This document shows positions 31,104 through 33,747 of a DNA stretch of 64,000 bases, one piece after another. How positions within the stretch are numbered: the stretch's first letter is position 1; each line of letters starts with the position of its first letter. A program made the translations under genes and the position numbers. This DNA comes from Promethearchaeota archaeon (GTDB taxonomy: Archaea > Asgardarchaeota > Lokiarchaeia > Sigyniarchaeales > SOKP01): contig JAHPZI010000006.1 of assembly GCA_019058295.1 (NCBI GenBank), positions 1-64,000 on the forward strand, read 5' to 3'. Under the pieces are notes generated by a model. The model was not told the origin of the DNA. It searched no databases and saw only the letters and a list, made by a program, of their open reading frames with translations.

Positions 31104-31427
31104 TTATTTATAGAAATCTTTTTTAAATAATACCCGTAATTCCTCTATTTTTTCTCTTAATAATGGCCCTGCAGCAGCTGTCGCTGGTCCAATAGATCCG
31201 TGCCCAATTCTTTGATTTAACCAATCTTCCGTTTCTTTTAAGATGGTATCTTTTTCTTTTGGATTTCTTTCCCATCTCCACATGGCAAACTTAATTAGTT
31301 CATCAGCAACAAGTTTTAATTCTTTTAATTTATCATTAATGTAGCTAGATGTATGATTCTGTATTGAATTGACGGTTTGGAACTTCTGATTTTCAATAGG
31401 AAGTTTATCGTGATCTTTCTTTTTCAT
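31104..31427 (-). CDS. Hypothetical protein
   Basis: 107-aa ORF filling the gap on the same strand as its neighbours. Confidence 0.55.
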   Translation of the reverse strand: MKKKDHDKLPIENQKFQTVNSIQNHTSSYINDKLKELKLVADELIKFAMWRWERNPKEKDTILKETEDWLNQRIGHGSIGPATAAAGPLLREKIEELRVLFKKDFYK

Positions 31428-31519: not shown

Positions 31520-32797
31520 TTAAGAGTTAGAATTATGATTTTTTTTTATAAAGTAATCTGATTCAAGATTGGGATATATTTTCTTTTTCCTGCCTGACTT
31601 TTTTATATTGATTAAATCAAGCTCGGCCAATTTTTTTATATGATAATAGGTGGTTTTATGATCTACTTTAAATCTCTTTGTTATTAGATTATTCCAAATT
31701 CCAGGTTCTTTTTCAATCATTTCCAATATTTCTAATGATAATTTGCTTTTACTGAGCTTTAGATCTATATTGGAAATTGGATTTTTTTGATAATAGGGAA
31801 AATATGCAATATAATTTGCAATTCTTTTTTTTCCTATAATTTTATATGTTTCTAATATATCAAGATGCCATACTAGATTTCCAGCAGCAAGCTCAGTTTT
31901 CCTCAATAATTCATTAAAATGAATTCCTGGTTCCTCTAATATTAAATCTATTATTTTATTTCGATTTTCGTTTTCTAAAACTTCTTCCAATGTTAAACGA
32001 TGAGCTCCTTTGGAATATGAAGTAGTTCTTGTCTTTAAATAATGAATATAATCCTTTTTTGAAATTAAAATTACTAAAGAGATAATTCCTATAGAAAATA
32101 TGATTAATGTCCATATCCATACATAAGACCAATAACTAACTTCGTAAATTGTTATATAATAGTCTGTATCTGCTTCAAGCTCTTTAATGCTAGTTTTCAA
32201 GTAAGTTTCTGAATTTGATTCATCAACTTTCTCCTCTGTATCAACTAATTCCCACGAATCTTCATCTTCTTCATATATTGCTATTGAATATTCTATAAGG
32301 GGGTCCAAACCATAGTTACTATCTTTTATGAATTCTAATTTTATTTTTTCAATTGAAGAGTTAGATTTTATAAGATAAATACATTTATATTGAGATCTTA
32401 ACTCAAAATCTCCGTTTTTTGGTTCTTTTGGAGTTTTTGATAATCCAAAACTTTCCATACTTCGTTCTGATTTTATTTCGACAGAGATAGGCTTATTACT
32501 ATAATCATTATTAATAATATCAAGAGATACTTCACGATTTTCGATTTTTTTATCATATTCAATATCAAGATGAATAAGCACATCTGTACTGATTTGTAAC
32601 CTGTTATTATTCGAAAAAAGATAAGATTTTGATTCACCAGGATTTATTTCTCCTTTTTTTGAATATCCAGAAATATAAGTGTCTTTTCTTGCGAATCCAA
32701 TAGAAATTAATAAACTAAATTCTAGAAGAATAATAGTTAAAAGTAAAAAACAAAATCCACGTTTTTTCCATTTATTAGTTATTGATATAAATACCAA
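31520..32797 (-). CDS. Transmembrane transcriptional regulator: signal/TM, ectodomain, TM, tandem winged HTH (COG3398-like)
   Basis: VLENENRNKIIDLILEEPGIHFNELLR...GNLVWHLDILE and EMIEKEPGIWN...TTYYHIKKL follow a TM helix (WIWTLIIFSIGIISLVILIS). Confidence 0.85.
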   Translation of the reverse strand: MVFISITNKWKKRGFCFLLLTIILLEFSLLISIGFARKDTYISGYSKKGEINPGESKSYLFSNNNRLQISTDVLIHLDIEYDKKIENREVSLDIINNDYSNKPISVEIKSERSMESFGLSKTPKEPKNGDFELRSQYKCIYLIKSNSSIEKIKLEFIKDSNYGLDPLIEYSIAIYEEDEDSWELVDTEEKVDESNSETYLKTSIKELEADTDYYITIYEVSYWSYVWIWTLIIFSIGIISLVILISKKDYIHYLKTRTTSYSKGAHRLTLEEVLENENRNKIIDLILEEPGIHFNELLRKTELAAGNLVWHLDILETYKIIGKKRIANYIAYFPYYQKNPISNIDLKLSKSKLSLEILEMIEKEPGIWNNLITKRFKVDHKTTYYHIKKLAELDLINIKKSGRKKKIYPNLESDYFIKKNHNSNS

Positions 32798-32878
32798 CTA
32801 TTATCAGTCCTTTTTTCAATAAATTTAATATAGAAAAAAAAAAATTTTAATATTAATTAAAAAAAATATCTCTGGTCT

Positions 32879-33571
32879 TTATTTTCTTCTTTTTATTATT
32901 ATAACAGCAACCCCAATTATAATTGCAGCTCCGATTCCAACTCCAATCAAAATTATTAAAGTGTAATCTGTCTCAGGTACTAATATAGTCCAAGTTGAAA
33001 AATGATCAGTTTCACATTCTAAATTTCCATCTTCACTAGTCGTTTCAACAGGAACCCATTCTTCATCTTCTTCGTCATAATAAGCCCATGTACCACCTTT
33101 ATTCTGTTCGGTTTCTTGAATACTTAATTTTGCATCACAATCTTCCGTACATTCAATATCGGCAACAAAACCTTCTTGATACCTATATCGTACGCGATTA
33201 CGTGCTTCAATAATATTACCCTTTCTAAGTCCCTTTGAATTTTCTTCTTCTTTACAGTTCATAGTCATGTTAAAAGCTCTATCAGCCTCGACTTCAATTT
33301 CAAAATCTTTATCTCCGATTCTTTCACCATCACATTTTATATCCAAATTAGCGGGTTTATTTGCTTCGAATGTTACTTTTGTTTTTTCCTCGAAACGAAA
33401 CCTTATTTGATTTTCAGCCATTACATAATATTGAATCCTTTCACCATCATCTATATCAACTTTCTCATCGTCTTTAGCCGCTGCTACATCTTCAACATTA
33501 TATAACATAAACCCAGATATAAATGATGATACCAGAAATAACCCAAATAAAATTTTACTCATTTGTGTCAT
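32879..33571 (-). CDS. Single-pass surface protein with juxtamembrane GPS/GAIN-like HFS motif
   Basis: Signal peptide; WAYYD....EW.......LECETDHFSTWTIL immediately before a C-terminal TM and KRRK. Confidence 0.8.
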   Translation of the reverse strand: MTQMSKILFGLFLVSSFISGFMLYNVEDVAAAKDDEKVDIDDGERIQYYVMAENQIRFRFEEKTKVTFEANKPANLDIKCDGERIGDKDFEIEVEADRAFNMTMNCKEEENSKGLRKGNIIEARNRVRYRYQEGFVADIECTEDCDAKLSIQETEQNKGGTWAYYDEEDEEWVPVETTSEDGNLECETDHFSTWTILVPETDYTLIILIGVGIGAAIIIGVAVIIIKRRK

Positions 33572-33633
33572 TTTTTTTTATCACTCAAATTTGTTCTAAA
33601 AAAATAAAATTGATTTGGTTTAAAAAGGCTTAA

Positions 33634-33646
33634 GGAATAATTTTCC
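33634..33646. promoter_or_regulatory. Candidate palindromic operator GGAA-N5-TTCC upstream of the TATA-like box of the 32879..33571 gene
   Basis: ggaataattttcc; on the minus strand it is followed after 7 nt by TTTTTAAA. Confidence 0.3.
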
Positions 33647-33747
33647 CCATATATAGGTTTAAATTTTCATTTGAGAGAATAATTAAATTAATATTTGAGG
33701 ATTAAATTTATAGTTTACATGTAAAGCGATTTATTTGTGAAAAAGTT

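Follow-up and report, generated by a model that had tools for sequence, protein, structure and literature searches.

A candidate surface-to-DNA module of Lokiarchaeal archaea: a predicted autoproteolytic MAIN domain encoded beside a membrane-bound regulator with a degenerate copy

Can autoproteolysis of the GAIN type carry a signal across a prokaryotic membrane? We investigated this question at a two-gene locus of a Promethearchaeota archaeon, in a stretch of DNA of 64,000 nucleotides (positions 1 to 64,000 of contig JAHPZI010000006.1, assembly GCA_019058295.1; G+C ~30%), hereafter the window. Gene A (32879..33571; supported by its open reading frame [ORF], homologues and AF2 model) encodes a minimal membrane protein of 230 residues, the ectodomain of which carries a His-Phe-Ser (HFS) motif; gene B (31520..32797, TTG start; supported by its ORF, Pfam matches and 50 homologues) encodes a transmembrane (TM) transcription regulator of 425 residues. 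Both genes lie on the minus strand, as do all features given below, with A upstream and a spacer of 81 nt, and the ORF listing agrees in coordinates, strand and gap with an earlier note on this DNA that was made from the sequence alone. Homologues of both genes carry Lokiarchaeota or Promethearchaeota labels. We lean, by a little, towards reading A and B, together with the mechanism set out below, as a conserved two-gene module of Lokiarchaeal (Promethearchaeota) archaea that relays events at the cell surface to DNA. Asgard archaea are the archaeal lineage closest to eukaryotes. The locus makes the opening question directly testable, with a protein of 230 residues, a Ser-to-Ala substitution as control and a candidate operator of 37 nt.

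Two related ectodomains, one with the HFS motif

The ectodomain of A (residues 35-199, 165 residues; 32975..33469) is a predicted beta-sandwich. We compared it with 48,161 PDB representatives by VIA-align, an exhaustive structural comparison. Subdomain B of the BAI3 GAIN domain ranked first (Z = 7.2, root-mean-square deviation 3.9, 129 residues), followed by the GAIN domains of CELSR1 (Z = 6.8) and CD97 (Z = 6.1); CARD8 FIIND (5.6) and ankyrin ZU5 (5.1) ranked lower, and GPR110 and NLRP1 FIIND were also matched. Foldseek placed GAIN domains (BAI2, BAI3, CD97) at ranks 1-4 with weak E-values (0.05-0.16). For the ectodomain of B (AF2 model, pLDDT 92), VIA-align again returned BAI3 GAIN first, over the same chain range as for A (Z = 6.1), and then ZU5 (5.9); a Foldseek search of PDB with it gave generic beta-sandwich matches only. 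Since a VIA-align Z below 8 can mean a common arrangement only, the Z values alone suggest just that, and the position of the motif and the sequence evidence add weight. In the A model (pLDDT 86.7; helix 3-24, beta-sandwich 35-199, helix 203-229), HFS (H190-F191-S192; 32996..33004) sits in the turn that links strand 183-188 to the final strand, 193-199, with the start of the TM helix four residues further on. The GAIN/ZU5 fold to which the earlier note had pointed for this domain is thus borne out by the structure rankings and by the motif in the turn of the last strands, and its suggested comparison of both predicted ectodomains with GAIN subdomain B ended with the same BAI3 chain on top for each.

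The Microbial Autoproteolysis INducing (MAIN) domain, a GAIN-B-like domain found in bacteria and archaea, for example in B. subtilis YfkN, was described by Brogan & Rudner (bioRxiv, 13 May 2026, doi 10.64898/2026.05.12.724683), whose domain parser labelled it ZU5. A profile of the A ectodomain, run against 1.84 billion representatives, matched 149 proteins, nearly all with the signature W..V.[ST]....G.L...H[FL][ST].W/F. Among them are three SLH-anchored bacterial proteins of 1460-1738 residues with HF[ST] motifs (P0265, P0292, P0315; library-wide E 6e-8 to 7e-4), in which Ig-like, cadherin-like or DUF4430 domains occur and the MAIN match stands just N-terminal of the SLH anchors. Because this architecture (e.g., DUF4430 followed by SLH) is that of proteins tabulated in the MAIN paper, A is, on sequence kinship and predicted structure, a MAIN-domain protein with a GAIN-B/ZU5-type fold. 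Pfam, in a version possibly older than any MAIN model, and NCBIfam returned no model for gene A.

Like the described MAIN proteins, A combines the beta-sandwich and the W...V...G.L...HFS.W/F motif, with HFS in the last beta-turn before the last strand, with bacterial sequence kinship, an N-terminal signal peptide and a surface anchor directly C-terminal of the domain. The signal peptide (residues 1-31, ending VAAA; 33479..33571) coincides with a hydrophobic segment at 4-26 and with the first helix of the model, and would be removed by cleavage; the anchor is a TM helix (residues 203-226; 32894..32965; hydrophobic segment 200-229) followed by KRRK at the C-terminus. Unlike them, A is anchored by this helix and not by a sortase signal or SLH domains, lacks a passenger, and has a transcription factor as its neighbor or, in some lineages, on the same chain. 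The mean mass of the described MAIN proteins is 158 kDa; their passengers are adhesion, enzymatic or toxin modules, and sortase signals or SLH domains fix them to the wall (doi 10.64898/2026.05.12.724683). In A, ~3 residues separate the signal peptide from the domain, too few for a large N-terminal passenger; such an adhesion or enzymatic part is usual among the members described but does not strictly define the family.

In bacterial MAIN domains, Edman sequencing places the cut between F and S of HFS, a Ser-to-Ala substitution abolishes it and the fragments stay associated (doi 10.64898/2026.05.12.724683). By analogy, A would be cut between F191 and S192. The autoproteolytic character that the earlier note had given to HFS is therefore established for bacterial homologues, and for A itself it is a prediction.

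The two ectodomains are homologous. A pairwise BLASTP comparison of A with B was not significant (E = 0.11), so that an alignment by eye, such as the in-order correspondence reported by the earlier note, would be weak alone. hhalign found the same blocks as those listed there: whole proteins (38 aligned A homologues vs 31 of B) matched at 98.4% probability (E = 5e-15, 186 columns), and the ectodomains alone, with signal peptides, TM helices and the cytoplasmic part trimmed, at 96.7% (E = 3.2e-10, 145 columns). When the A AF2 model was used in a shape search of the ESM Atlas, two clusters of the B family (423 and 419 residues) were recovered, with TM-scores of 0.67 over 187 residues and 0.51; these clusters carry 100% HTH_24 plus HTH_HVO_0163_N.

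At the motif strand, A reads T-D-H-F-S-T-W-T-I-L and B (ectodomain residues 38-222; 32132..32686) reads T-D-Y-Y-I-T-I-Y-E-V. B keeps the strand, and all three catalytic positions are replaced, Y213-Y214-I215 (32153..32161) standing at the aligned codons; that only A retains the motif, as the earlier note had it, was confirmed. All 38 aligned A homologues have HFS. None of the 31 aligned or the 80 surveyed homologues of B has it, and the 80 have no H-x-S/T motif either; in the aligned B set, Y213, T216 and E219 are invariant. Judged from these alignments and its model, the B ectodomain is a catalytically dead MAIN paralogue (pseudo-MAIN) that has kept homology and fold.

The rest of B is regulatory. 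Its N-terminal TM or signal-anchor segment (residues 14-36; 32690..32758; hydropathy 12-37) carries a conserved acidic or amide residue at mid-helix, E26, and its second TM helix (residues 225-246; 32060..32125; hydropathy 223-251; G237, S240 and K247 conserved) leads into an invariant KKDY linker. The C-terminal third holds two winged helix-turn-helix (wHTH) domains, HTH_HVO_0163_N (residues 276-335; 31793..31972; PF24266, E = 7.8e-16, 58.3 bits vs a cut-off of 31) and HTH_24 (residues 352-396; 31610..31744; PF13412, E = 2.1e-9, 37.2 bits vs a cut-off of 21.9), both above the Pfam gathering cut-offs; in PDB, this part matched 5DUK, a putative DNA-binding protein (E = 7e-5). From the positive-inside rule and domain order, both ectodomains would lie outside and the DNA-binding half of B in the cytoplasm. 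Hydropathy, the A model and the Pfam matches reproduce the layouts read by the earlier note, namely signal peptide, ectodomain, TM and KRRK in A, and signal/TM, ectodomain, TM and two wHTH domains in B.

Several relatives (L002:1175-3033, L003:1139-3020 and L004:1167-3025; genomes G065, G183 and G198) have, elsewhere in the genome, a second B-like paralogue of 411-421 residues, with a dead strand of the EYYITIY type and the wHTH pair; its upstream neighbor there is an unrelated protein of ~190 residues with an N-terminal anchor and no HFS domain. This second copy was not found in the window's own genome.

Conservation of the pair and natural fusions

All 133 homologues of A are of Asgard (Promethearchaeota) origin. 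We sampled 301 genomes evenly across the phylum and found A in 60 of the 68 genomes of the window's family and in seven of seven of its sister family. The B ectodomain was found in the same 60 genomes, the same eight lacking both, and a comparison of coordinates by eye showed that 59 of the 60 have A immediately upstream of B, on the same strand. We made a second survey of 80 named species-level loci fetched through B, all from Promethearchaeota metagenome-assembled genomes, 74 of which have readable upstream DNA. Here A directly preceded B on the same strand at every informative locus (74/74), which answers the question of conservation that the earlier note had raised. The spacer measured 38-101 nt in 73 of these, and in one the called ORFs overlap by 47 nt; reciprocal matches of the ectodomain models (A model to B, B model to A) reached 1e-5 to 1e-13 at nearly every surveyed locus. 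HFS was present in 72 of the 74 A genes, the remaining two reading DFS or EFS. In the sister family, an A-type gene is followed by a B-type gene of 395-456 codons, also in a closed genome of 4.36 Mb, with a B-type ectodomain too diverged for a single-sequence query. The pair is thus present across a second family of the order.

The DFS and EFS orthologues (L051:1716-2396 and L053:1706-2404) keep the rest of the strand and are natural candidates for non-cleaving variants. In one genome (G276; C206:2956-3596), the B gene next to an intact A has an in-frame TAG and TAA, and may be a pseudogene or reflect a sequencing error.

In two independent metagenome lineages, A and B are joined in frame. The fusion proteins (P0014 and P0016), which come from separate JGI samples and share 85% identity, begin with a signal peptide and an A-type ectodomain that has HFS and is 65-66% identical to A; a TM helix, the B linker and the wHTH pair follow. 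The helix is chimeric, its first half A-like and its second half B-like. The fused genes lie at the syntenic locus, are followed by the same nitroreductase gene and have no separate B, and the palindrome described below is kept before the fused gene. The fusions look like in-frame deletions that joined A and B within the TM-coding segments.

A divergent lineage of higher G+C retains the two-gene arrangement with HFS in both genes, the first encoding an A-like protein of 275 residues and the second a protein of 481 residues (P0230) that has a MAIN domain, live by its motif, followed by a TM helix and the two wHTH domains. BLASTP matches the ectodomains of the two proteins to each other (E = 3e-22). 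P0230 also bridges both families: in searches with this single sequence, E-values ran from 1e-10 to 1e-22 for A genes and stood at ~1e-5 for B ectodomains. A word-based homologue search with P0230 returned P0230 only, and its lineage was not found among the 301 sampled Asgard genomes. Across these arrangements, the regulator is always accompanied by a MAIN domain that is live as judged by its motif, on the same chain or next door. This is the strongest argument, though an indirect one, that A and B work together and are not simply neighbors.

MAIN proteins with one domain or with two or three in tandem, ending in IPGF/PGY-like tails, were also encountered (P0062, P0074, P0174 and P0173; L009:2443-2997 and L011:1343-3063). 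The tails resemble PGF-CTERM archaeosortase signals, an archaeal parallel to the sortase-anchored bacterial MAIN proteins.

A proposed mechanism and its alternatives

We propose that A cleaves itself at F191/S192, as the tested bacterial MAIN domains do. An N-terminal fragment of ~160 residues would then be held non-covalently on the last strand (STWTILV), itself joined to the TM helix, and could be shed; the shed part would be the domain itself, A being a bare domain on a TM helix. B, which would not be cleavable, would sense in the plane of the membrane whether A is intact, cut but still held together, or shed, and would do so through the like ectodomains, the TM helices or both. The state of A would alter the DNA binding or the stability of B, the TM helix and invariant linker of which would tie the sensor to the wHTH pair, and B would regulate its own operon through a palindrome at the A promoter. 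Fused variants would do likewise in cis. The contact of A with B is part of this proposal, and the stimulus would be shear, contact or envelope damage; pairing through the ectodomains and a mechanical input, both envisaged by the earlier note, likewise stay at the level of a proposal.

Conserved membrane residues are in keeping with such a contact. Column 26 in the first TM helix of B holds E in 21, Q in 7, D in 2 and N in 1 of 31 homologues, and small residues are conserved in the second helix of B (G237, S240) and in that of A (G210, A215). This pattern suggests retained, packed helices that may touch in the membrane plane, and the first hydrophobic helix of B is probably retained rather than removed.

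The palindrome (GGAA-N6-TTCC type, core TTATTCCTYAA; 33617..33653) lies ~50 nt upstream of the A start and abuts a TATA-like box, within a block of ~32 conserved bases in which it runs into the TTTTTATA box. It is recognizable upstream of A in 56-58 of the 74 loci. In the window's own genome (79% complete) the full pattern occurs once, the weight-matrix score being 31.7 bits here and 16.8 at the next best site; a larger regulon was sought in this genome through the palindrome, and only the A promoter scored high. The element fits a dedicated operator for a dimeric wHTH protein, and B would be the protein that binds it. An A-type gene of the sister family is preceded, at ~25 nt, by a perfect inverted repeat of other sequence, TTGGAA ... 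TTCCAA (L007:950-1000, genome G165), which hints that the GGAA/TTCC type of operator may be older than the exact element of the window's family.

The spacer between A and B contains a run of 11 T (32834..32844), and at least eight T in a row (8-13 T) were found in 71 of the 74 orthologous spacers. Oligo-T tracts are archaeal termination signals. The run may put A above B in expression as a partial terminator, or may belong to a B promoter.

These cis-elements also fit an alternative in which B would be a local membrane regulator of the A gene, the likeness of the ectodomains would be a relic of tandem duplication, and B would sense a ligand of its own with no interaction between the proteins. 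We consider this alternative rather unlikely, while granting it the unique conserved palindrome at the A promoter, a T-run that would permit separate expression levels, the frequency of adjacent regulator-target pairs in general, and the circumstance that contact between the A and B proteins is itself only inferred. It is hard pressed by the retention of a dead copy of the A domain as the sensor of B, under clear constraint across the order, and by the fusions, which exchange the B sensor for the live domain of A and dispense with a separate A, an outcome hard to explain if A were cargo. The joint loss of A and B in 8 of 68 genomes speaks for co-operation of the two, though it is also compatible with a regulator and its target.

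A less probable alternative, and in our judgment an unlikely one, accepts that A and B act together and denies the proteolysis: the two would form a ligand-binding hetero-oligomer resembling ToxR-ToxS, with HFS as a structural turn motif and A stabilizing or protecting B. Adjacent single-pass partners that control the stability or dimerization of a regulator are established (ToxRS, TcpPH, VtrAC; PMC10269533), A has no passenger domain through which force could act, and two natural A orthologues lack the His. Yet HFS is kept in 38/38 and 72/74 A sequences and all three residues are lost in B, as expected if catalysis is selected in A, and nearly all bacterial MAIN domains tested do cleave (Brogan & Rudner, doi 10.64898/2026.05.12.724683).

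Release of the B wHTH part by regulated intramembrane proteolysis as in Notch or RsgI, with A as a shield or decoy whose shedding exposes B or a fused stub, is very unlikely for the pair, as no protease gene is linked to the locus, the B ectodomain is probably tethered at both ends with the conserved E26 in the first TM helix (which disfavors stub formation), and transmembrane regulators of archaea and bacteria are able to work without leaving the membrane (PMC10269533), even though the fused proteins have exactly the layout of RsgI/SEAL and Notch (self-cleaving ectodomain, TM helix, cytoplasmic regulator) and for these variants such release would be a live alternative.

Several observations weigh against the two-gene module that we favor. 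There is no direct evidence of A touching B; a structure prediction of the A-B complex from the ectodomain alignments, which scored 0.00, counts neither for nor against such contact. The GAIN similarity is moderate (Z 6-7; Foldseek E 0.05-0.5). Almost every MAIN protein described so far bears an adhesion or enzymatic passenger and A bears none, which leaves no obvious handle for a pulling force; the DFS or EFS of two orthologues implies that cleavage is not indispensable everywhere. The palindrome could be the target of another factor, and the conserved T-run may mean separate or attenuated transcription of A and B. Sister-family and tandem A-type proteins end in PGF/PGY-like signals of the archaeosortase type, and these tails may be cut off and the proteins anchored to lipid. 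Such processing would take away the TM helix and weaken the model of TM-helix pairing, and it speaks against a TM-TM contact that is universal.

A stronger form of the module reading holds that a GAIN-like autoproteolytic domain of Asgard archaea already triggers transmembrane signaling, force or cell contact shedding the A fragment (or the ectodomain of a fused regulator) and so switching a membrane-tethered winged-helix transcription factor. We put this forward tentatively, as a possibility that is more doubtful than the module itself. If true, it would amount to a prokaryotic mechanosensory pathway resembling Notch and adhesion GPCRs in the closest archaeal relatives of eukaryotes.

Relation to known systems

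The GAIN domains of adhesion GPCRs (BAI3 4DLO, CELSR1, CD97) are the best structural matches of A and share with it an H-hydrophobic-S/T sequence before a buried last strand that leads to the membrane. A differs in that its model has a single TM helix, with neither a helical subdomain A nor seven TM helices, and in that the GPS disulfide pair is missing (a single Cys at -4 is not invariant); where adhesion GPCRs use a G protein, the module has for its output a wHTH protein from the neighboring gene. A does not, therefore, belong to the adhesion GPCRs, nor does the B ectodomain, lacking the catalytic H-x-S/T, qualify as an active MAIN domain.

With ToxR-ToxS, TcpP-TcpH and VtrA-VtrC, the locus shares a single-pass membrane DNA-binding protein and an adjacent single-pass partner with an extracytoplasmic domain (PMC10269533); the ToxRS-type layout, a DNA-binding domain and TM helix in B next to the gene of a membrane partner, is present here. 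B differs from this class in its inverted topology, with C-terminal DNA-binding domains, and in its archaeal ArsR/HVO_0163 type of wHTH; the partner A is a paralogue of the sensor with an autoproteolytic motif, not a lipocalin-like protein. A live enzyme paired with a dead paralogue as sensor would add to the known designs of one-component membrane regulators.

RsgI with SEAL domains and Notch combine a self-cleaving, non-covalently held ectodomain with a TM helix and cytoplasmic control of transcription, the predicted layout of the fused P0014, P0016 and P0230. The fold of the module is GAIN-B/ZU5 and not SEA or NRR, its output is a direct DNA-binding domain and not an anti-sigma factor, and in the window the cleavable and DNA-binding parts are on two polypeptides.

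The MAIN paper, the only one on microbial GAIN-like domains, concludes that the domain serves the release of surface proteins and speculates on the origin of adhesion-GPCR signaling; its authors state that MAIN domains have no function in transmembrane signaling and tie no signaling mechanism to the retained fragment (doi 10.64898/2026.05.12.724683). Neither an HTH/ArsR/MarR regulator architecture nor a Lokiarchaeota entry is among those entries of its supplement that are listed, and in the library that we searched, no paper connects a GAIN or MAIN domain with Asgard archaea or with a transcription factor. The earlier note knew of no description of the pair, which stands for the pairing with a membrane transcription factor and not for the domain family, published as MAIN. 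The family and transmembrane regulators are thus known already; the combination of a live and a dead paralogue, a bare MAIN protein, wHTH fusions and conservation across an Asgard order is undescribed. The module, most of all in its fused forms, gives a concrete example, with wide conservation, of a MAIN domain wired by one TM helix to a DNA-binding output, and a candidate for the first link between a MAIN domain and transmembrane signaling in prokaryotes.

Two further features touch the locus and its family. A 107-codon ORF (31104..31427) between B and the nitroreductase gene was considered as a third component and rejected for want of conservation at this position in relatives; it may be confined to this lineage or be no gene at all. 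A-type paralogues of 300-400 residues carry a long CxCxC-type cysteine-repeat insert in one loop of the MAIN sandwich (L005:2219-3148 and L006:1497-2705; genomes G270 and G192), one keeping HFS and the other reading TLA there, and similar cysteine-repeat matches of A type occur in ~12 genomes.

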